Below are positions 553 to 63,986 of a stretch of 64,000 bases of DNA, one piece after another (the first letter of the stretch is position 1; the number at the start of each line of letters is the position of its first letter). The notes below the pieces were generated by a model that saw only the letters and a program-made list of their open reading frames with translations, ran no database searches and was not told the DNA's origin. The stretch comes from Octopus sinensis. Lineage: Eukaryota. Location: assembly GCF_006345805.1 (NCBI RefSeq), contig NC_043011.1, forward strand, positions 38,824,464-38,888,463, given 5' to 3'. The position numbers and the translations under genes were made by a program.

Positions 553-795
553 GATACAGAGAGAGGGAGTGGGAGATAAAGAAAGAGAGAGAGAGACTCA
601 AAGAATACATATATATATATATATCTTTACATGGCTGTTTGTTGACACATTTTTTCGCTCTGTAAGGGTAATTTACCTAATGTTTCTGCTATTTTAACGG
701 CGTCTCTGCGTTCGAAAGTAAATTATGATCTTATAAATGCATTTCGTCGCTCATAAAAAAAAGCAAATGTTAGTTTTGTTAGCTTATTTATATCA

Positions 796-885
<90 letters not shown>

Positions 886-910
886 GTGTGTACATATGCC
901 TATACCTCTA

Positions 911-1440
911 TACGAGGTGATTCCAGAAGTTTTTAAGTTCTTCCAAAACCTAGCTTCTTAACTTCATAGAAGTACAACACTAATCCGACTTTTGTCACAG
1001 GTCACCAGTAACTCAGATACCGTTGGATTGTAGTAAATAAGCTCGACCATCTCCTTGCTGACGCCACCGCACACCCGGGGTCCAAATTTTGCAAACATTC
1101 TAATCTTCATGTACATCTGTCGAACCATCTCCAAATTGTATGCTTGTCGTCTTTCTGAACGACATAGAGCAAGAAACTTCGAATTTTCTCAACTATTATT
1201 CTGATATTCTGAAGTGCCTCTCCCTTCCACACTTATCATCGCCTCTCGCTTTCTCTCTATTGCCCTTGAACATCATGTGCCAGCGAAAACCAGATGATCG
1301 TTTCAGACAAGTTAATCCGAAAGCAGTCTGGAGTATTTCATGTTTCTGTAATATTTTAGCCCAGTTAATACAAAACTGTATTGAATAGCGAACTACCAAA
1401 TTGACTTCACAACCCCGATTACATTCTACAAACAAGAAGT
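911..1440 (-). mobile_element. Second, degraded mariner remnant (transposase N-terminal HTH)
   Basis: ORF 1196-1435(-) contains RYSIQFCIN..HEILQTAFGLTCLKRSSGFRWHMMFKGNRE..DDKCGR, typical of the mariner N-terminus. Possible TA-CGAGG terminus at 911. Confidence 0.7.
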
Positions 1441-1517
1441 GTTTAGTAAATTGTGTTCATGTGCTGCTATTCATTCAGTCTGGAATAAAATATTGGCAGG
1501 TCAGCTTGTTAGATGTA

Positions 1518-2052
1518 TTGGGTTGTCCAGAAAGTTCATGCCGATTTATAGTAGCTTACCTTTCGACTTATTTTAGAACATGGTTGAGTCCATAAAATAG
1601 GGTTTGACTACACCTCCATTTAGAGCACAGTTTATGTTCCTATAAGCTGTGTTAATTCTGTAACCCTTTAAAATGGAAGATAAGAAAGTTCCTCTTCGGC
1701 GCTTGATGCTTTGAGAACCAGACAAAAATTGTTGCAGCTCGGCTGGTATGTGTTACCCCACCCTCCATATTCACCAGATATTGCTCCTTCGGATTTTCAC
1801 TTATTCAGGTCTCTGCAGAATAGTCTTAATGGTAAAAATTTTAATTCCTTGGATGACGTAAAACGATACCTTGATGAATTCTTTGCCATGAAACTACCTC
1901 AATTCTGGGAAGAGGATATTTTCAAGTTAAAGGAAAGATGGAGACGCATTGTTCAACAAAATGGTTTATATTTGGTTGATTAAAAATGTAATGGCAACTA
2001 TTTATTGACCTTTTTCTTTCCTTTAAAAATCGGAACTTTCCGGAAAACCCAA
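1518..2052 (+). mobile_element. Internally deleted non-autonomous mariner with both TIRs and TA target duplication
   Basis: TA|TTGGGTTGTCCAGAAAGTTC...GAACTTTCCGGAAAACCCAA|TA. The start MEDKKVPLRRLML (ATG ~1673) is fused to the C-terminus LGWYVLPHPPYSPDIAPSDFHLFRSLQNSL..LKERWRRIVQQNGLYLVD (YSPDLAPSD motif). Confidence 0.95.
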
Positions 2053-2128
2053 TACATTAAAGGTACACTAAAATCACTATGATCTAGGAGTTTTAACAGC
2101 CTCTCCTAAAATGTCTCTAACTATCTAT

Positions 2129-2200
2129 ATGGCGTCGTGGTTAAGAGCGCGGGCTACTAACCCCAAGATTCCGAGTTCGATTCCAAGCAGTGACCTGAAC
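2129..2200 (+). mobile_element. Short tRNA-derived SINE head
   Basis: A box TGGCGTCGTGG and B box GAGTTCGATTCC; no proper acceptor stem; followed by an AAT-rich tail. Confidence 0.6.
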
Positions 2201-2790
2201 ATATTATAATAGAAGAAATAATAATAATATGAGAAAATGAACTAACAGGTTCTGTGCCGTGTTACTAATAACTCAATGGTCATAATATGTAGAATCATTT
2301 TACATTGAAAATATTAGCTCTTAAATAATTTGTCGAAAACTATTACATAAATTGAAGATAGATTAGTGCTCCAGAATGGTCAGAATAAGAATGGGTTAAA
2401 TCATCTTAAGAAGACTTTAGAATTAATAGTTTGAAGAAGAATTCTTAATATTGATTTGTGTGTGTGTGTGTGTGTGTGTGTGTGGAGAGAGAGAGAGAGA
2501 GAGAGAGCGTGTGCTAATATGTGTTTCCAAGCGTAGACACATTTAAACTCTGAAGTCTGAAATTGTCGACTATGTCTATTCTTCTATATAATAGGTGTAT
2601 ATCATAAGTATTTCTAATAATCATAATGATAATAATAATAATAATAATAATATAATAGTAATAGTAATATATAATAATAATAATATAATAATATAGTAGT
2701 ATATATAATAATGATAAAAATAATAATAACAATAATAATATGATAATGATAATAATATAATAATATAATAATAATAATAATAAAATAATA

Positions 2791-2831
<41 letters not shown>

Positions 2832-3265
2832 TGTCAATTTAAAACATCTTTAGAATCTCTCAACAGAAAGTTTCGCTTGTTGAGTGAAGCAAGAAATATA
2901 TTTAACTGTCAAATATTTCTACGTTTCACTTACCTCATAACATTGTAGTTCTGACTACTGACATCCAATTAAAATCTAACCACACACATATATAAATACA
3001 CATATATATATATATGTAAATATATGTATACATATATATATATATCTGTGTGCATATGTCTGTATACTTGTGAGTGTGTGTGTGTGTTGTGTGTGTGTGG
3101 TGTGTGTGCGTGCGTGCGTGTACAGTGAAATATGGAATAAAAATCAGCTTGTGAAAACATACACTAATATTTTTCCAGTAAAACTTTTATATGAATACAT
3201 TTGTTATGTGAAAACATAATTTCATCTCTTTATTGTCACGTATATATATATATAAAATAGAAATA

Positions 3266-3560
3266 GTTTGTTCCTTCTTGAGCCATGCCTGGCTCATAAG
3301 GGCCGGCTTCCCGGTTTCCTTGGCGTATAGGTTCCCCCACCTGGACGATACGCCGGTCCGTCGCAGGTGAGCAGCAAGATGCGGGAGGAAAGATTGAGAG
3401 AAAGTTGTGGCGAAAGAGTCAGCAGAAGTTCGCCATTACCTTCTACCGGAGCCGTGTGGAGCTTAGGTGTTTCGCTCATAAACACACTCATCGCCCGTTC
3501 TGAGATTCGAACCCGCGACCGCGAGTCCGCTGCTCTAACCACTAGGCCATGTGCCTCCAC
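3266..3560 (-). mobile_element. tRNA-derived SINE, head family C, 3' body shared with the copy at 4484
   Basis: Head GTGGAGGCACATGGCCTAGTGGTTAG..GGTTCGAATCTC; 3' module CTGCGACGGACCGGCG..GTCCAG..GAAACCGGGAA; same head as at 33151, 33567 and 40051. Confidence 0.85.
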
Positions 3561-3786
3561 AATAGAAATAGTAACCCCCTATTTTATATGCCGTTTTATA
3601 AAACAGCTAGATATAGGGAGGCCTCATCTCCTAGAATTCCCTTTTAAAATGTAGTCTTAGAACTATACACGCAGCATATGACTATATTTGATCTTTAATC
3701 CAGAGGCAGCGTTCAATACCCCTGTAACTGTTGTGACGTCGTCCTTGTTGCCATTTTTTTTCTTACCGAAACAATGTTTTAATATA

Positions 3787-3890
3787 CAGTAATGCCTCAA
3801 CATACGAGTTAACTTGTTCCCGAAGATCGCTTGTAAAGCCAAAACTCGTAAAGCACAACAATAATTCCCTATAGTAGCAATAAAATTTTA
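3787..3890 (+). mobile_element. pogo/Tigger-like DNA transposon terminus
   Basis: TA-CAGTAATGCCTCAACATACGAGT resembles Tigger-type TIRs; no partner end was found. Confidence 0.45.
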
Positions 3891-3987
3891 TTCCGTCATT
3901 TTACTCCGTTGCTGTGTAGACGCGTGTCGCCACATGTTGCGACGTTGCGACACACACAAATGGACTGTTTAGCCTGTTTATATTTAT

Positions 3988-4160
3988 TATACTCTTTTAC
4001 TCTTTTACTTGTTCCAGTCATTTGACTGGGGCCATGCTGGAGCACCGCCTTTAGTCGAGCAAATCGACCCCAGGACTTATTCTTTGTAAGCCTAGTACTT
4101 ATTCTATCGGTCTCCTTTGCCGAACCGCTGAGTTATGGGGACGTAAACACACCAGCATTC
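3988..4160 (-). mobile_element. SINE family A, 3' part
   Basis: Matches the 3' half of the full copy at 29765-30171 (GGCGGTGCTCCAGCATGGCC.CAGTCAAATGACTG, AAGAGT tail). Confidence 0.9.
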
Positions 4161-4269
4161 GTTTTCATTACTCATGTAAAGTTTTATTGTATCATTCGTT
4201 TATGTGTGACCCCGATCATGCTGTATTGTCCCCTCTATGTTGGCCCTTAATGGGTAATTAAAAAAAACA

Positions 4270-4431
4270 GATTCCAAAATCTAATCAGTTCGTGCCGGTC
4301 ACAAAGCCAAACATCCCAAAAGTTTCATCCGAATCCATCCAGTGGTTCTTGAGTTATCTTGTCCACGGTCAAACAAACAAACAACAAACACGACTGAAAA
4401 CTATACCTCCGCTTTAGCGAAGGCGGAGCAA
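4270..4431 (+). mobile_element. Helentron/HINE-like 3' end
   Basis: (CAAA)n followed by GAAAACTATA and a terminal hairpin CTCCGCTTTAGCGAAGGCGGAG, the usual layout of Helentron-associated non-autonomous elements. Confidence 0.6.
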
Positions 4432-4483
4432 ATAAGGATTGGGAATTGCAACATTATTTCATTTTGTCTGCTATAGATAAAAT

Positions 4484-4750
4484 AGTGGAGGCGCGTGGCT
4501 TAGTGGTTGGGGTGTCAGCATCATGATCGTAAGATTGTGGTTTCGATTCCTGGACCGGGCGACGCGTTGTGTTCTTGGGCAAAAGACTTCATTTCATGTT
4601 GCTCCAGTCCACTCAGCTGGCAAAAATGAATAACGCTGCGATGGACTGGCGTCCCGTCCAGCTGGGGAACACATACGCCATAGAAACCGGGAAACCGGGT
4701 CCATGAGCCTGACAAGGCTTTGAAAGGGCGCATTTATTTATTTTATTTTA
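4484..4750 (+). mobile_element. tRNA-derived SINE, head family D, inserted in the hAT transposase
   Basis: GGCGCGTGGCTTAGTGGTT..GTTTCGATTCC head, (TTTA)n tail, flanked by the TATAGATA duplication. Confidence 0.88.
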
Positions 4751-5237
4751 TTATAGATAGAATGATCTGCTTGCTTTGTAATACTGAAACATCAACACTG
4801 AAAAAATTCAATGCCCATTAGCATTACGCTACTCATAAAGACCAGAAATATTTCAAATTAGAGGGAGGGGTAAGAAAGATTGCATTGCAGAAATTAAAAG
4901 ATGTAAATCAAAAGCAACGTTAAATTATTTCAGGTCGTTGTTAGACCCGGAAGGAATGCGACTGAAGCAGCTTATAAAGGAAAAAAGGGAAGCCATTCAG
5001 TGATGTGGAAATCGTAAAAGAATACGTTGTTGAAGTTGTGTGATGCTTACACCCCCGATAAGGTATTAAAGTACAAACAACTGCTTCTTTCAAGGAGAAT
5101 CATATCTGATCGGCAGCATGAATCAGCCCTCAACATAACAAAGCAAATTCACGCAAAACTCCAAAAGGAAAACATATTCAATCGCTGTGGTTGAATCACT
5201 TGAGGCTTCTGACTCAGCGCAGGTATTATACTTCGTT

Positions 5238-6021
5238 AAGGCCGAATCGTTAGCACGCCGAGCGAAATGCTTTGCGGTATTTCGTCTGCCGTTACGTTCT
5301 GAGTTCAAATTCCGCCGAGGTCGACTTTGCCTTTCATCCTTTCGTGGTTGATAAATTAAGTACCATTTACGAACTGGAGTCTATGTAATCGACTTAATCC
5401 GTTTGTCTGTCCTTGTTTGTTCCCTCTATGTTTAGTCCCTTGTGGCTAGTAAAGAAATAAGTATTTCGTCTGCCGTTACGTTCTGAGTTCAAATTCCGCC
5501 GAGGTCAACTTTGCCTTTCATCCTTTCGGGGTCGATAAATCAAGTACCAGTTACGAACTGGAGTCTATGTAATCGACTTAATCCGTTTGTCTGTCCTTGT
5601 TTGTTCCCTCTATGTTTAGCCCCTTGTGGCTAGTAAAGAAATAGGTATTTCGTCTGCCGTTACGTTCTGAGTTCAAATTCCGCCGAGGTCAACTTTGCCT
5701 TTCATCCTTTCAGGGTCGATAAATTAAGTACCAGTTACGCACTGGTGTCGATATAATCGACTTAATCCGTCGTTTGTTTGTCCTTGTTTGTCCTCTCTGT
5801 GTTTAGCCCCTTGTGGCTAGTAAAGAAATAGGTATTTCGTCTGCCGTTACGTTCTGAGTTCAAATTCCGCCGAGGTCAACTTTGCCTTTCATCCTTTCGG
5901 GGTCGATAAATTAAGTACCAGTTACGCACTGGTGTCGATATAATCGACTTAATCCGTCGTTTGTTTGTTTGTCCTTGTTTGTCCTCTCTGTGTTTTGCTC
6001 CTTTTGGGTAGTAAAGAAATA
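5238..6021 (+). repeat. Tandem array of SINE family B (Nin-domain-like): one head plus four ~184-191 bp units
   Basis: Units start at 5276, 5460, 5644 and 5831. Core GTCGACTTTGCCTTTCATCCTTTCGGGGTCGATAAATTAAGTACCAG. Imperfect 16-bp TSD at 5222-5237 / 6022-6037. Confidence 0.93.
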
Positions 6022-7449
6022 GCTATTTTACTTAGTTCGGGCCCCATAACAGAACATTTTATTTGCTACGAAATGTTACTGGCATTGGTCACTCTTACGG
6101 GTAAAACACTTTCAAGATAAATATCGTAAAGTTGGACAGAATTTGGTTAAATTAGTGAATGTATGTACAGGTGGTGCACCATCCATGGCAGGAAAACATG
6201 AAGGGCTTATTGTATAGATAGAAAGAGTATTATCAAATCCAGACACTCTCATTTCTCTCCATTGTATTTTACATCGGCAAAATCCCTGTGCTAGATCCAT
6301 TGTTTTAAGTGACACTTTGCAACAAGTAATGAAGATTGTTTACTATATGGGAAAATGCAACACGGCATCGTCAGTTTCGTAACATGCTAAAGCTGGACGA
6401 TGAGGTATTCAGTGTGAACTTTCTGTATCATTCTAAAAGTGCGTTGGCTATCGAAAGGACAGGTGTTAGCAAAATTTTATCTTTAGGAGAACAGATAATT
6501 AAATTTTATGACGAACAGAATCAGCAATATGAATTATTAAAAGAACGTTTCTATAGAAATGATGAATTTCAGTGTAATATCATATGAAGGAAAAATGACT
6601 GGAATATTTCTTTGCATATATAATATGTGGCAAAATTCCAAGCATTTCGAAAACCTCACTATTTTGAAAACTCTTCTTCGAAAAGAAATTTTGGATGAAT
6701 ATTTAGCAATTGTTAGCAAAGGTCATTGATGAACAGGAGCATTCGTGCAAATCATTTGGAAAATACGCAGCTGTTATAGACTTATTAACTGGAGAATACA
6801 ATGAAAGATTCACTGACTTTGAGAATTATAACATCACAATAAAGCTAGCATTTCAACTTCACCTAGTTGATGTCTCCAAGGCTCATAAAGAGCTACAGGT
6901 GGAATTGAGTCCTCAGAAGATGACATTTTAAAATCGTTATTTGAGGTTAAGAAAGATATGATTAAAATATGGCAAAATGCAATAAAATACGCAAGCCTTC
7001 GGCAACATGCACAGAGAATACTTCCCGCTTTTCAACCACTTATTGCTGCGAATCTACATTCTCCTACCTAACCAAATCAAGACGCCCTTAAGACCACAAA
7101 TGACGGACACCCATCAAGAGGATCGATCAAAACTGCAGGCCTCCATGCCAAATCAAATATTCAAATGATTTCCTACAAAAATCAGTCACAAGAAAGTCAT
7201 TAAAAGTTAGTTCATCTTAGAGTTAACAATTATTTTTTTCCTTTTTGAAGTTATTTAGTACACAATAGCTTGATTTTTACAAAATGAGGTAGATTTTGAA
7301 GTATATATAATTGAAATTCCTTGAATAGTGCCTTAAATTACAACTATATGCGACCTTCCAGTGCGAAAAGGTTCCCTTCCGTTGACCTATTCTTTTAAAT
7401 TATTACGGTGCAAAGGACCGTTCCTGCTAGAGACAGACGTTGAGTACCA

Positions 7450-20420: not shown

Positions 20421-21405
20421 ATCAGTTGAATAAAGTTAAAATGGTCTGGTTTTCACGTTATTTTAATGGTACTTCAACTTTAAAAAAATATTTTGTAATC
20501 TTCATAAAGTTCAATTAGTGTTTTCATACTTTCGTAGTAATGAGCAGATTTCAAAATTTAACTGACAGGTGAGTTCTGAGCTACTATAGTACCTCTTAGA
20601 ACATTCAAACAAACTGAATTTTTTGAATACGGTTTTGACCAATCCGCACGCATCTTAAACGTCATGTTTTTCCGGGCATACCGATATTCTGTAATTTGTC
20701 TATATTCATATGTTAAAGATGTTTTTCAATCCAATCCACATCATTAACTGGTTGGTATATTATTGTAGCTATTTCCGTTCAGAACGGGTTTGAATATTTT
20801 AATAAACCGCTTTTCTTTTATCTTTGTTCCAACCTCTCTTGTGTCATGTAATTTGTGGAAAGGTAAAATTAGAAACATTTTCTGACCACGTTTCTATATG
20901 TTCGCTTATTGGAATTTGGTGAACATTGGTGTGGTGGATTTGTCGTTTCTGGACTCGTGAGCGTTCTGATAATGCATTCCCTGTCTCGCCTATACACAGT
21001 CTCTCACAATTCGGGAATTTAATGCGGTAGACCATATTTCTGCTTTTGCAGTTCATATCTGCATTTGCGAAAATCTGTCCATTCTTTCTTCTAATGGATC
21101 TACCAGTATGAATGTATTTATACATTCCACATCTGTTATCATTACACTTGGATACTGTGAATGTCTGAGTTGCATGCTGATTGGTCAAAACCGTATTCCA
21201 AAAATTCAACTTGTTGGTGCGTTCTAATAGGTACTATATTTATCGAGAATGCAACTGTCAGTTAAATGCATTTCGAAATCTGATGATTGCTACGAAAGTA
21301 CGAAGGCGCCAATTGAACTTTATGAACATTACAAAATGTTTAATACTAAAATACCATAATAAAAAACGTGAAAACCAGACCATATTTTCACTTTATTCAA
21401 CTGAT
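20421..21405 (-). mobile_element. 5'-truncated Penelope-like element (probably Neptune type): GIY-YIG fragment between inverted pLTR arms (20421-20664 and 21158-21405)
   Basis: SKCNDNRCGM.KYIHTG..MNCKSRNMVYRIKFPNCERLCIGETG..PISEHI, then KIKEKRFIKIFKPVLN at ~20770-20830. Both outer ends read TTTATTCAACTGAT into (TA)n. Confidence 0.88.
21277..21314 (+). ncRNA. Degenerate minimal hammerhead motif in the pLTR arm (partner at 20513-20550, minus strand)
   Basis: The two arms together give the consensus AAT-CTGATGA-T-TACT-ACGAA-AGTA-T-GAAA-GCGC-TA-ATT; each copy has mutations. Confidence 0.55.
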
Positions 21406-24440: not shown

Positions 24441-25055
24441 TCGAGTTGGCAGAATCGTTAGCACGCCGGGCGAAATTCGTAGCCGTATTTCGTCTGCCGT
24501 TACGTTCTGAGTTCAAATTCCGTGCAGGTCGACTTTGCCTTTCATACTTTCGGGTTCGATAAATTAAGTACCAGTTACTCACTGGGGTCGATATAATCGA
24601 CTTAATCCTTGTGTCTGTCCCTGTTTGTCCTCTCTGTGTTTAGCCCCTTGTGGGTAGTAAAGAAATAGGTATTTCGTTTGTCTTTACGTTCCGAGTTCAA
24701 ATTCCGCCGAGGTCGACTTTGCCTTTCATCTCTTCGGGTTCGATAAATTAAGTACCAGTTACGCACTGGGGTCGATGTAATCGACTTAATCACTTTGTCT
24801 GTCCTTGTTTGTCCCCTCTATCTTTAGCCCCTGTGGGCAATAAAGAAATAAGAATCATTAGAACGCTCAAAAAAATGTTTGCGGCATTTCGTCGGTTTTC
24901 ATGTTCTAAGTTTAAATTCCGCCGAGGTCGACTTTGCCTTTCACGCTTTCGGGGTCGATGAAATAAGTACCAACTGAGCACTGGAATCGCTCTACTTCTG
25001 ATGACTTACTCCCTCTCCTAAAATTGCTGGCCTTGTGCCAAAACTTGAAATCAAC
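24441..25055 (+). repeat. SINE B tandem: two B1 units (junction at 24668) followed by a B2 copy
   Basis: Junction AAGAAATA|GGTATTTCG, then AAGAAATA|AGAATC.. Confidence 0.9.
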
Positions 25056-35012: not shown

Positions 35013-36329
35013 ATCCTCCAGTCCTCTCGGTAATTTCCCTGTGCGTTCTCTTACTGTTTCGTTTCCTGTATGACCCAAATCCTCTATTCGAAGAAGACAA
35101 GCACCGGTTTCCTTGAATTCTATTTTGTCTGCAATAGTTGGCAGATTCTTGGTGATACTAGACACAAAGAAGTCAATTATTAATAGTGTTCTTCCACTTC
35201 CTTGTTCGTTCTCTCTATTATATATATATATATATGTATGTATGTGAGCGACTGTGCGATTGTAGGACTGTGCGAATATATGACTATGTCAGTAAGTGAT
35301 AGTGGGTGAGGAAGAAAACTAGGGCGATGTGTTGCAAGCATGAAAAGAAAAGGAGAAGTGATGAATCTTAAAGACGAGTCGCACATGTTGATTAAAGATG
35401 CATAAAGTTGCTGTGAATTCCCCAGATTTACATTAGAAAAGAAAAATTTGAATACATGCATATATTTATACATCGGGAAAGTGAATCAATTGAAAACAGG
35501 TGGGGAATGAGGAAGAGAAGGGTAGAGAGAGAGGAAGGAAAGAAGGAAGGAAGGAAGGAGGGTAGGTGGGGATGGGCGTGAGGAGGAGAGATGACAAGAT
35601 GAGAATGGGGAGGAGGAGGGGGGAGTGAGAGATGTGGAGCGATGATTCTGGAATAATCTATAATTTATAAGGCTCCACTATTTGAAAATCCAAATCCGGC
35701 CATCATCCGTCAACAGGCATTTTCCATTCAAATTAGCCAGAGCGTCCATAAATATCCGCGTGTCTGTGTATCTATCAATATACGCGTATGTGTGTGTATG
35801 TGCGTGTGTGTGTGTATGTGTGTGTGTGTGAGTGCGTGTGTACACACACATACATAAACGATAAAGTATATAATTGAAATTGTGTATAGCTTATATTTGT
35901 AGTTGATTTAAGTGGCGTTTAATAGGCATCTAAATTAAATATTTAATGGTTTAGATCTTGCGTGAAGTGGTATATATATATATATATATATATATTATAT
36001 TATATAATATATATATATATATATATACATATATGCATATACATATATACTTATAGATACATATACAAAATACATATATATACACATATATATATACAGG
36101 CACACATACATATATATTTATCTACACATATATATTAATATATATATATATATACATATATATTTATATATGTATGTATCTATGATATGTATATTTACAT
36201 TTATCTATATAATTACGCACAAGTATACAGATATACGCATATATATTCATATATACACATTTATATGCCCGTATTTATATACATCCAAGTATATGTATAT
36301 CTGTGTGTGCGTGCGTGTCTGCATATATG

Positions 36330-37560: not shown

Positions 37561-38382
37561 CTCACATATATTCAGAAGAAAATAAATCAAGAGCGTGAAT
37601 GATGATTCCGTTCCTAATCTTCAATTGATATTATGAAGGCTACAATACAGCCATTGTTTACATTAAGGAAATGATACTGGTATTTGGTGTTAGATGTAGA
37701 GATTTTGTTGATGCTGATGTTGTTGGTATTAATTTAAGTCTTCTTGGAAATGGCTAACGAGGATGCAGCTGTGGTGTATGTATGTATGTCATTGTTTAGT
37801 TTATTTCAAGATTTCTTGCCAATAGAGAAAGAATCGGTTTCTAACCGAGATCCAACGCTCCTTCATTGGAATTTAATCATCAACATGCTATTTTTGTTTG
37901 TATGTAAGTATGTCTGTATGTATGTACGCATGTATGTATATGTGCAGATTTGAATGATTTGTTTTATGTATGTATTTTCATGCATATAGTTGCATATCTA
38001 CACATGTTAATATATATCTTAATGATAAACTTCTGGAACGTCTTACAGATTTTTACAGTTCCAATGATGGATTGGATCTGTAGTCTTCGAATTAACTTTC
38101 TCCTTTCTGGTTTTGAGAAGCCTAACTTCTCAAGATTGGTAGTATGTATGTATGTATGTATGTATGCATGTATGTATGTATGTATGTATGTATGTATGTA
38201 TGTATGTATGTATGTATGTATGTATGTGTGTGTATGTATGTATGTATGTTGTCTAACTACATTTTAGAGGAAATGTGTATACATTTTTTTCAATTACAGT
38301 GAAAGTAGATTTGGCCAGGAAGAATTGATGTCATCAGTCGGTGCTTAACGACTGATGACATCAGAAACAGTACCAAATAATA

Positions 38383-38831
38383 ACAAAGTGTGTGTCGGTA
38401 GCCAACTGGAAAATATGTTTTCGAAGGGCTAAAACAACAGTAAAATCGTCCTTTATAGGAATGCCACAAATTGAAAATAGGTGGGGAATGAGGAACTTTA
38501 CTATTCGGTACTGTTATTGCATGTCTCTCGCTGAGAGATTTGAAACAAGTTCTTTTTCTCTTTACGAGATCAGCGACTGTGTATCGCTTAAAGAATATAT
38601 AGTATTTGCGAGCAGAGAGAGCTTTCGTCACTAGCCTATGGTTGTCTCACACTGAAGACGGGTAATCACCCAGAAACCTAAGTTTGTGAGTATCACGTAA
38701 GGCTAGAGATGGGAGCGATGACCTCCCTTGCAAATGCTATACGGACACAAACTGTGTGTCGATAGCCAGCTGGAAAAGGTATTTTCCTGGGGCTAAAACA
38801 ACAGTATCATAATCCTTTATAGGACTGCCAC
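38383..38831 (+). mobile_element. Retrozyme-like or pLTR unit: ~364-bp period with ~80-bp terminal direct repeats and an internal hammerhead
   Basis: Repeats at 38389-38467 and 38753-38831 (TGTGTGTCG.TAGCCA.CTGGAAAA..GGGCTAAAACAACAGTA..TCCTTTATAGGA.TGCCAC); followed by (TA)n. Confidence 0.75.
38646..38690 (+). ncRNA. Minimal type-I hammerhead ribozyme with an intact core
   Basis: CTCACA-CTGAAGA-C-GGGT-AATC-ACCC-A-GAAAC-CTAA-GTT-TGTGAG. Confidence 0.85.
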
Positions 38832-38850
38832 GTTCTGTTGGCATATAAAC

Positions 38851-38924
<74 letters not shown>

Positions 38925-38942
38925 TTACATACATATACATAC

Positions 38943-38989
<47 letters not shown>

Positions 38990-39459
38990 GATACATACAT
39001 AAGTGCATAGGGTGGTGAGCTGTCGAACTCATTAGCACGCCGGGTAAAAACGCTTAGTGTAATTTCGTCCATCCTTGCATTCTGAGTTCAAATTCCACTG
39101 TGGTCGATTTTACCTTTTATCCCTCCGTGGTCGATAATGTAAGTACCTGTTGAGCACTGAGGTCAATGTAATCAAGCTTACTCCTTCTCCCGAAACTGCT
39201 GGACTTGTGCCAAATATGTCACCGCCTATACGCTAGAAGTAGACGTCAAGTACCTACAATCAACTCTAAATTTATTCTACATTTATAAACCAAGGCCGAA
39301 TGCGAGGAAATGAGCAAGAAGATTTACAAATTTCAGATAATCCTATCCCTTAAGATTTCGTGTAATGAAGATTACTTTTCACTCCTCGGTAGAGATAAAC
39401 CGACAGTATATAGAAGAAAAATACGTACTCATACCGATATATTTTTGCGTACAGATACC

Positions 39460-39691
39460 TATTTCTTTACTACCAACAAGGGGCTAAACACAGACAGGAC
39501 AAACAAGGACAGACAAACGGATTAAGTCGATTATATCGACCCCAGTGCGTAACTGGTACTTATTTCATTGACCGTGAAAGGATGAAAGGCAAAGTCGACT
39601 TCGGCGGAATTTGAACTCAGAACGCAATGATAGACGAAATACCGCTAAGCATTTTGTCCAGCACGCTAATGACTCTGCCAGCACGCCACCG
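39460..39691 (-). mobile_element. Monomeric SINE B1 with a perfect 17-bp TSD
   Basis: TTTTGCGTACAGATACC at 39443-39459 and 39692-39708. Confidence 0.95.
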
Positions 39692-59947: not shown

Positions 59948-60351
59948 GGCAGAAACGTTAGGATGCCGGGCGAAATGCTTAGTGGTATTTCGTTTGCCGC
60001 TACGTTCTGAGTTCAAATTCTGCCGCGGTCAACTTTGTCTTTCATCTTTTCGGGGTCGATTAAATAAGTACCAGTTACGCACTGGGGTCGATATAATCGA
60101 CTTAATCCGTTTGTCTGTCCTTGTTTGTCCTCTCTGTGTTTAGCCCCTTGTGGATAGTAAAGAAATAGGTATTTCGTCTGCCGCTACGTTCTGAGTTCAG
60201 ATTCCGCCGAGGTCAACTTTGCCTTTCATCCTTTCGGGGTCGATTAAATAAGTACCAGTCACGCACTAGAGTCGATATAATTGACTTAATCCGTTTGTCT
60301 GCCCTTGTTTGTCCCTTCTGTGTGTAGCCCCTAGTGGGCAGTAAAGAAATA
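59948..60351 (+). repeat. SINE B1 dimer (units at 59984 and 60168)
   Basis: 184-bp period with the AAGAAATA|GGTATTTCG junction. Confidence 0.92.
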
Positions 60352-61625: not shown

Positions 61626-63389
61626 GAAAAATAATTTAATAATAAATCTCCAAATGCACGATGACTAGCGAGAATCAAAATGATGAATTACAAATTCGAT
61701 TGCAATACGTTCCGCTAGATTCGAGCTTGAATATTTCTAATCGCATCTCGTCCGTGGAAAACAATTTCTCCATTGTTCTTTTAACTTATAGAGACACGAA
61801 TACGTGCGCACATGCAAACACGCGCGTAAACTCACACACACGCATGCACACGCGTGCGCGTGCGCACACACAACCACACAAACACTCACACACAGGCACG
61901 CACACACACACACTCATTAATGCACGCTCAATCACACTCACATATTTACTCATACGAACACACGCATGCAGAAATACATACACACACTCAGGCACATGCA
62001 CACGCTTACACACATACATACACACACACTTACACACACACACACAAATACGCAAGCATACTCACGCACAAATGCACACACACACACGCACACACAAACA
62101 TGCAAACATACTCACGCACAGACAAACACATACACACACACACATGTGCATATACACACGCTCACACACACAGACGAACATGCAAGCACACTCACACACG
62201 AACACACTGACACACACACATACACACACAGACACTTACACACACACATAAACGTGCAAACACACTCATACAGGCAAACACTTACGCACAAACACATACA
62301 TACATACACACACACTTAGACACATACATTTCCAGACACACACACAACCAAACATGCAAGCACACTCACACACACACATACTCACTTATGCACACACACA
62401 TACACACATAGACACTTACACACACACGCACACGCACACGCACAAAAAAACGTGCAAACACACTCACGTACAGACAAACATTTACACACGCACACACATA
62501 CACACATACATACATATATATATACACTTACACACATATACTTACACACACACACACACACACACACACAAGCATGCAGGCATACTCACGCACAGCCTGA
62601 ATGTATGGATCTTTCGACAAATGGCTACCTACATTTCATTGCTCTGCTCTCTGATGCCTGACTTGGAGCCGCTCTTCTATCTACCACCGCTACCCAATCG
62701 AGGAATACGTTAACGAGCTACCTTAAACCGTGTGAATTAATATTATGTTATGTAATATTCAAGCTTTTCGCACTAATTACCAAATTAATTGCCAAAAAGT
62801 TTGAATGTTGAAAGCTTAAAAACAAAATCGATATATTTTAAATGCATTTTGATGTAAAATTGATGACAATGATAAAAAAATTTATATATGGACTAACGTA
62901 AAATAATAAAATTCTCAGAAATTTAAGTGAGCCAAAAGTATTTACACATATTTTATTTTTCTTAAGCCCTAGGATACATAGAACCATTTACCTGATTTCC
63001 ATCGCGAATAACCCGTCCGCATTTAAGCTAATTATGGATTGGACTGGTTTGAATTTCCTATGTTCAATCCACTCCAGAATGAGGGTCTCAGCATGTTCTC
63101 TCCAGCAACCACGGTCCCGTATGGAGGCCGTGAATCTGAGCTTGAGATCACACTGGTTTGATGAGCTTACTCTGGCGCAACGGCTCGATATAGCTTGGCA
63201 GAAGGGTGCAGTTTTAAGTCTATTACCTCGACCAGTGTTCAACTGGTATTTATTTTATCGACCCTGAAAATATGAAAGCAATGTCAGCAGAATTTGAACT
63301 CAGACCGTAAGGACTGGTGCATTACTGTTAAGCATTTCACCCGGCCTTCTGACGATTCTATCTGATCGCTACCCAAAGCTGGTTATATC

Positions 63390-63986
63390 TATTTCTTTAC
63401 TACCCACAAGGGGCTAAACACAGAGAGAACAAACAAGAACAGACAAACGGATTAAGACGGTTATATCGACCCCAGTGAGTAACTGGTACTTATTTAATCG
63501 ACCTTGAAAGAATGAAAGGCAAAGTCGACCTCAGCGGAATTTGAACTCAGAACGTAGCGGCAGACGAAATACCTATTTCTTTACTACCCACAAGGGGCTA
63601 AACACGGAGAGGACAAACAAGAACAGACAAATGGATTAAGACGGTTATATCGACCCCAGTGAGTAACTGGTACTTATTTAATCGACCTCGGAAGGATGAA
63701 AGGCAAAGTCGATCTCAGCGGAATTTGAACTCAGAACGTAGCGGCAGACGAAATACCTATTTCTTTATTACCCACAAGGGGCTAAACACAGAGAGGACAA
63801 ACAAGGACAGACAAACGGATTAAGTCGGTTATATCGACGCCAGTGAGTAACTGGTACTTATTTAATCGACCTCGAAAGGATGAAAGACAAAGTCGACCTT
63901 AGCGGAATTTGAACTCAGAACGTAGCGGCAGACGAAATACCGCTAAGCATTTCGCCCGGCGTGCTAACGTTTCTGCCAGCTCACCT
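63390..63986 (-). repeat. SINE B1 array: head plus three 184-bp units
   Basis: Units 63390-63573, 63574-63757 and 63758-63941; TSD AAGCTGGTTATA at 63376 and 63989. Confidence 0.94.

Follow-up and report, generated by a model that had tools for sequence, protein, structure and literature searches.

The window, a continuous stretch of 64,000 nucleotides of Octopus sinensis DNA, holds at 38383-38853 an old, altered insertion of 1.2 units, which belongs to a non-coding family whose unit of ~354 nt bears a hammerhead. Features of the locus are listed in Table 1. The two direct repeats (38383-38467 and 38747-38831) are 85 nt each, 84% identical and offset by 364, in agreement with the ~80-bp repeats 364 bp apart described in an earlier, sequence-only reading. 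However, the ~364-nt unit proposed in that reading did not hold up: the unit of this copy measures 354 nt (GC 0.42), those of its relatives measure ~349-361 nt, and the spacing is 364 because a 27-nt patch replaces ~16 family bases and inflates it. The window unit departs by ~6% from the commonest letters of the family.

Table 1. Features of the insertion and its surroundings, in window positions
Feature	Position	Strand	Remarks
Donor of the patch	35488..35514	+	2,981 bases upstream of the patch
15-bp hairpin at the 5' junction	38326..38363	.	fragment of another repeat plus an apparent fold-back copy (38354-38363)
Short inverted piece resembling the start of the unit	38365..38383	-	~16/19 letters, read by eye
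5'-truncated end of a preceding unit (first direct repeat)	38383..38468	+	
Foreign 27-nt patch, apparently copied from nearby DNA	38469..38495	+	26/27 identical to 35488-35514
Full 354-nt non-coding unit, subfamily A	38494..38847	+	register 38494/38848
Interrupted rod extending helix I	38600..38739	+	pairing kept across subfamilies
Type I hammerhead motif	38646..38690	+	helix I 6 bp, helix II 4 bp, helix III very short
Second direct repeat	38747..38853	+	reaches the "short" fixed 3' end of the family; no tail
(TA)n microsatellite at the 3' end of the insertion	38855..39001	.	likely target site

In the assembly, the patch sequence occurs at exactly two sites when at most one mismatch is allowed, namely the patch and its donor, and it looks like a locally templated insertion. 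On the 5' side, 38296-38363 is a piece of a different low-copy repeat, which has five further matches, and the piece ends in the 15-bp fold-back hairpin; the hairpin is absent from all five other displayed copies of that repeat. For the 5' junction of the window copy, the likely source of the patching is template switching at the time of insertion, or else later repair. Elsewhere in the window, 184-nt SINE-like units form tandem arrays of two to four (5276-6028, 24485-24850, 59984-60351 and 63385-63941), related copies lie inverted at 39047-39173 and 39529-39655, and a broken RT-to-GIY-YIG fragment of a Penelope-like element (PLE) is found on the minus strand at 20756-21188, 17 kb from the insertion.

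Hammerhead and rod

The window hammerhead retains all conserved core letters, and its predicted cut lies after 38684. A hammerhead descriptor matched the 64-kb window at this site only and gave one match in 200 block-shuffled windows; Rfam gave no hammerhead match in the window at the gathering score, nor at E up to 1. The motif had been called intact, which is true of its core letters but not of its helix-III palindrome and GUC site, both of which are lost. Among 43 family hammerheads, a set that includes the window copy and copies from three duplicated loci, position 38681 is G in 33 and position 38684 is C (GUC) in 35, whereas the window copy has A and T (GUU), respectively. Since A replaces G at 38681, the palindrome is broken; self-pairing of the helix-III 8-mer amounts to -0.2 kcal/mol in the window, compared with -10.7 to -14.9 in three natural relatives. 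A GUU site cleaves more slowly than GUC. Ribozymes of this kind pair through the helix-III palindrome in order to cut, as described in sections of PMC4209133.

Because it has one, altered hammerhead, the window locus is predicted to be unable to release a monomer by double cleavage, and no 364-nt circle with its joint at 38684 is to be expected from this locus. The circle to look for would be the 352-nt unit of the young subfamily C. The window copy itself is probably dead, a fossil whose one use is to give access to the family.

Each unit of the family carries a single canonical type I hammerhead whose helix III is short and palindromic; the letters of this palindrome differ from one subfamily to the next, yet it is palindromic in each. 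A family-wide C.A mismatch at 10.1/11.1, the base of helix II, is present in the window hammerhead; it occurs in 20/30 hammerheads of subfamily A and 17/21 of subfamily B. The Rfam hammerhead models found no match in a trimer of subfamily C, where only weak chance matches to microRNA hairpins appeared.

A long rod extending stem I had also been proposed, and folding bore it out, more strongly on the plus strand than on the minus strand: region 38590-38750 (161 nt) reached -57.3 kcal/mol (z -5.5) on the former and -47.5 (z -3.1) on the latter. In the window copy, 7 of 46 pairs are G.U and 3 are A.C. When folded in circular mode, the whole unit was stable, but this stability was not strand-specific (z -5.1 for plus, -6.3 for minus).

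We then applied a 46-pair model to 51 of 55 extracted regions, leaving out two with deleted hammerheads, one chimeric region and one longer extract. Paired cells made up 90.8%, and 19 of the 46 pairs showed two-sided change. None of 500 shuffles reached either the pairing or the covariation score; note that this control ignores relatedness, and that related sequences can beat shuffles without structure. All nine pairs that differ between subfamilies A and B remain paired in the model, which was drawn from the same sequences and from which five pairs were trimmed after B was seen. Three of the trimmed pairs break in B, one breaks in A and one is kept, so that 10 of 14 changed pairs stay paired when they are counted. 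These counts are support, not probabilities. RNAalifold independently recovered helix I and part of the rod, with two-sided change in 8 of 17 pairs; helices II and III were not recovered. Subject to how the structure was chosen, the family RNA is highly self-paired with a conserved structure, as in retrozymes, and the predicted role of the rod is to keep the cut ends of a monomer next to each other.

A dispersed family and the anatomy of its insertions

The window copy is one of many non-coding copies scattered through the genome, which fall into at least three subfamilies (A, B and C); single units of these are 65-74% alike. Subfamily B was reached via a chance copy, and C likewise via another. 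The initial genome searches gave 2252, 3306 and 1986 candidates for A, B and C, respectively, of which the best 40 of each were scored; these numbers overlap and are not copy numbers. Copies depart from the commonest letters by ~10% in A and ~9% in B, and subfamily C, with a unit of 352 nt and 2.7% between copies, is the youngest. An exact 20-letter motif of A had 78 matches, spread over most large contigs, and 0 control matches. Only two close pairs occur among these 78, neither at unit spacing, and a spaced-dimer pattern gave 0 matches in the genome, a weak result since the pattern demands two exact 16-mers of the old subfamily A.

Both tandem and permuted homologues, the kinds of copy that the sequence-only reading had pointed to, were found. 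In subfamily C, 3 of 28 loci (two duplicate loci omitted) have at least two complete hammerheads 352 apart, as dimers and a 1,104-nt trimer. In subfamily A, 9 of 94 loci (six duplicates omitted) run through two cut sites under the stricter rule, or 10 under a looser rule, and 6 span two whole hammerhead regions, whereas none of 30 loci of subfamily B spans two cut sites. Nearly all runs of family units are under two units. Departures from the commonest letters are shared by 14-17% between pieces of one insertion and by 6% between loci in subfamily A, and by 20-27% and 5%, respectively, in subfamily C; private letters are thus shared two to five times more within an insertion, as expected from one template. 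The retrozyme proposed earlier is a fair description of the family (a non-coding unit of ~354 nt with one hammerhead each, tandem and permuted copies, conserved structure and no ORF in the examined loci); the copy on which the proposal was based is old and has a single altered hammerhead.

Some individual copies had features of their own. The young subfamily C trimer (L185; G000:C8:82985146-82986281, minus strand) has two upstream units that share variants absent from its third unit. By eye, the copy at ~2040-1780 of L088 is interrupted by roughly 300 nt of other sequence, which we take to be rRNA-like. The copy at ~1250-1500 of L011 contains about eight tandem repeats of a short stretch inside it. 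At 311-596 of L213 lies a far more diverged relative, which suggests further subfamilies, as do loose ends met in the comparison with sequencing runs. A look-up of such runs listed no RNA run with the family, which counts neither for nor against its expression.

Four of the runs were guessed to be RNA, and their contigs contained pieces of the family with go-back joints of 352 and 353 nt. We did not take the joints as evidence of circles; they fit read-through of genomic partial tandems, because the contigs (404 and 390 nt) exceed the unit plus one word. A rise in read depth near the cut site was likewise rejected as a signal: it reflects divergent subfamilies, and contigs starting there differ upstream. 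On a subfamily B copy, runs X2 and X3 have depth profiles that track the one of X5, a large run.

The ends of the insertions were then compared. Free 3' ends of subfamily A fall into two windows ~65 nt apart in 111 of 157 cases, and 67 of these 111 run into a microsatellite, as compared with 15% of flank positions. The 5' ends are ragged, without pile-up at the cut site or elsewhere. An adjacent inverted piece was present at 41/94 subfamily A loci. Among 65 head-to-head insertions, 24 of them unclassable, a tail is present on exactly one end in 37 of the 41 classable cases (p 5e-8); because the tail was part of the query sequences used for B and C, note also the value for A and B alone, 22/25 classable (p 6e-5). 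The two fixed 3' ends lie 50-70 nt apart, which equals the length of the tail. Microhomology priming was considered for these fixed ends and set aside, the B and C ends matching the flank little by eye.

The family thus displays 5' truncation, partial tandems, head-to-head inversion and an AT-rich target, which are features of PLE insertions. In the available parts of 10.1101/2021.04.23.441226, 5' truncation, partial tandems, an inverted copy and a one-sided tail are described for PLEs, and sections of PMC11167929 explain the tail, unique to PLEs, as the interval that separates two points inside the RNA at which the RT starts. The genomic evidence for Penelope mobilisation of the family is good, with the enzyme probably acting in trans. 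The insertion anatomy does not require a circle, because hammerhead-free PLEs (Naiads) also form partial tandems and tails (10.1101/2021.04.23.441226, in part), and an anole PLE inserts uncleaved RNA, its main substrate in vitro (PMC11167929, in part). The window insertion had been interpreted as either a 1.2-mer copied from a circular RNA or a partial tandem pLTR. These alternatives are not exclusive: the insertion is a partial tandem of the Penelope type whose unit is non-autonomous, and a circular template may be supposed for it.

PLEs are abundant in the same genome. Two loci, L167 and L169, have long RT + GIY-YIG frames and are candidates for intact PLE ORFs; the former holds a young PLE (674-6591) with a 781-aa RT + GIY-YIG frame and terminal repeats that are 98.9% identical. 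This element also has a 479-aa upstream frame and a minimal hammerhead-like motif of its own, and there are many near-identical GIY-YIG matches in the genome. The unit was not found directly behind an ORF on the same strand at any of 30 + 10 + 30 PLE loci (four overlap), 60 of which were examined with 1.5-kb flanks, a range in which a distant repeat could be missed. The PLE families that were read have their own ends, unrelated to the unit. In family copies long enough to tell, the upstream neighbour is another unit, not an ORF; no PLE frame lies within the unit, and an RT + GIY-YIG ORF between repeats was not found in the sampled loci. The sequence-only reading would have been refuted by homologues that are all joined to a PLE ORF and lack permuted or tandem copies; the loci seen show the opposite, with no ORF attached and with tandems present. 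On present sampling, the unit appears to be non-autonomous.

PLE fragments do lie near some copies (3/94 A loci; L154, L160, L185, L194, L057, L169, L213, L221 and L229) and were rejected as partners; L007, L057, L088, L114, L160 and L169 were read for this purpose, and the rest were judged by position and strand. An older PLE family, located behind a GIY-YIG frame in L209-L228, likewise stops at (TA)n, with or without a short tail, and has a degenerate hammerhead-like hairpin; about nine letters near its 3' end are shared with subfamily A, possibly by chance.

Proposed cycle, alternatives and known systems

The reading that we prefer, with a probability of about 0.68, is that this non-coding family is pasted into microsatellites by PLE enzymes in trans, likely from self-cleaved and circularised RNA. 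In such a cycle, an insertion holding two hammerheads would be transcribed, and the two hammerheads would pair via the helix-III palindrome and cut out a monomer, whose ends the rod would keep together for ligation into a circle. The PLE endonuclease would nick (TA)n DNA, and the reverse transcriptase would initiate internally on the RNA, at either of two sites separated by 50-70 nt. Copying could continue through the ligated cut site to give ~1 to 1.9 units, and a second priming at the other start site would produce the inverted half. A circle is favoured by the conservation of the rod and the palindrome, by 5' ends that bear no relation to the cut site, and by the circles that mussel units of this size produce. 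The A and C loci that extend through two cut sites or hammerheads (9/94 and 3/28) show no barrier at the cut site. The non-identical units of the trimer, on the other hand, are not predicted by a single circle. The lack of long arrays, the C.A mismatch in helix II, the missing Rfam matches and the circular fold that does not distinguish the strands also weigh against this reading.

It is appreciably less probable, though the strongest of the alternatives, that the same non-autonomous PLE parasite is copied from linear, uncleaved or terminally redundant transcripts, with tandems arising by template jumps between redundant ends and the hammerhead merely trimming or regulating the RNA. The uncleaved RNA that is the main in vitro substrate of the anole enzyme and the tandems of the same kind in the hammerhead-free Naiads, both cited above from partial sources, agree with such copying, as do the prevalence of runs under two units and the differing units of the trimer. 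However, the palindrome and the end-joining rod have been kept by compensatory change across subfamilies that are only 65-74% alike, the 5' ends show no accumulation at the cut site or any other point, and circles are produced from comparable units in coral, mussel and axolotl (sections of PMC7229834), all of which argues for the circular template.

We consider it improbable that the unit is a pLTR of an unsampled autonomous PLE and the copies its truncation products. The insertion anatomy is indeed that of PLEs, and vertebrate retrozymes resemble pLTRs according to the parts of 10.64898/2026.07.22.740005 available to us; moreover, the best 40 of ~2000-3300 candidates were scored per search, ranked by non-coding likeness, so that rare ORF-linked copies could be missed, and the RT fragment near the subfamily C copy at L194 was judged by coordinates only. 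Against these points stand the upstream neighbours of the copies, which are units and not ORFs, the absence of the unit behind the ORF at all 30 + 10 + 30 PLE loci, whose PLE ends are unrelated to it, and a hammerhead that is canonical and not of the minimal PLE type (PMC4209133, in part). Least probable by far is an origin by local DNA duplication, as a satellite seed with a chance fold, or as a domesticated single-copy RNA. Repeats that are only 84% alike, a locally patched junction and the suggestion of Li et al., in the available part of 10.64898/2026.07.22.740005, that pLTRs amplify locally would suit such an origin, but it is largely refuted by copies dispersed over most large contigs with ends of the retrotransposition type; in addition, the window copy has lost hammerhead positions conserved in the family.

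Beyond the preferred reading, chances seem even that hammerhead RNA circles form a lineage of long standing which lives as a parasite of PLE enzymes, presenting them with the two internal sites at which they begin reverse transcription, and that this lineage has spread in successive waves. If so, an RNA without a 3' end could be integrated, and the youngest subfamily beside young intact PLEs would be a natural pair for reconstituting the missing step of the retrozyme cycle.

On its testable features the family belongs to the animal non-LTR retrozymes, with cleavage and circles putative. These are non-coding units of ~170-400 nt with GC under ~45%, and the octopus units are 354 nt, or 352 nt in subfamily C. 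Compared with the retrozymes in sections of PMC7229834, the family is alike in having a highly self-paired non-coding unit of ~350 nt with GC 40-45% and a single canonical type I hammerhead, in which helix III is short and palindromic, as well as dimers and a trimer, and PLEs in the same genome. It differs in consisting mostly of dispersed insertions under two units, with one trimer, and not of long arrays. Circles were observed for the mussel retrozymes of 350-390 bp (PMC7229834, in part) and are predicted for the octopus family. A cephalopod retrozyme was not found in the literature searched, although Repbase, Dfam or the supplement of PMC7229834 may already list the family.

PLEs have been proposed as mobilisers of retrozymes on the basis of co-occurrence and homology (parts of PMC7229834 and 10.64898/2026.07.22.740005). 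The tail and inversion signature documented here for the octopus family is absent from the examined sections of PMC7229834. The vertebrate retrozymes that Li et al. regard as PLE derivatives (10.64898/2026.07.22.740005, in part) support the dependence on PLEs; those authors base their case on co-occurrence and on homology to pLTRs and suggest that amplification is local, and the word "tail" is absent from the main text as far as available. By contrast, the octopus unit is itself retrotransposed and matches no sampled pLTR. Two consecutive units with complete hammerheads, the standard used by Li et al. in that part of their paper, are present at 3/28 subfamily C loci.

In comparison with EN+ PLEs (Neptune, Poseidon and Naiad; parts of 10.1101/2021.04.23.441226, PMC3846280 and PMC11167929), the family shares 5' truncation, partial tandems, a head-to-head inverted copy, a tail on one end, and AT-rich or (TA)n targets. 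Unlike them, the octopus element has no ORF and measures ~354 nt as a whole, its tail is 50-70 nt as against 30-40, and its hammerhead is canonical and placed on a long rod, whereas the PLE hammerhead is minimal. As to how animal retrozymes re-enter the genome, three subfamilies carry the one-sided tail specific to PLEs, an indication both of the enzyme and of a pair of start sites on the RNA. Initiation at an internal site would account for the use of a circle as template, and a young subfamily together with intact PLE ORFs makes a direct test of mobilisation possible.
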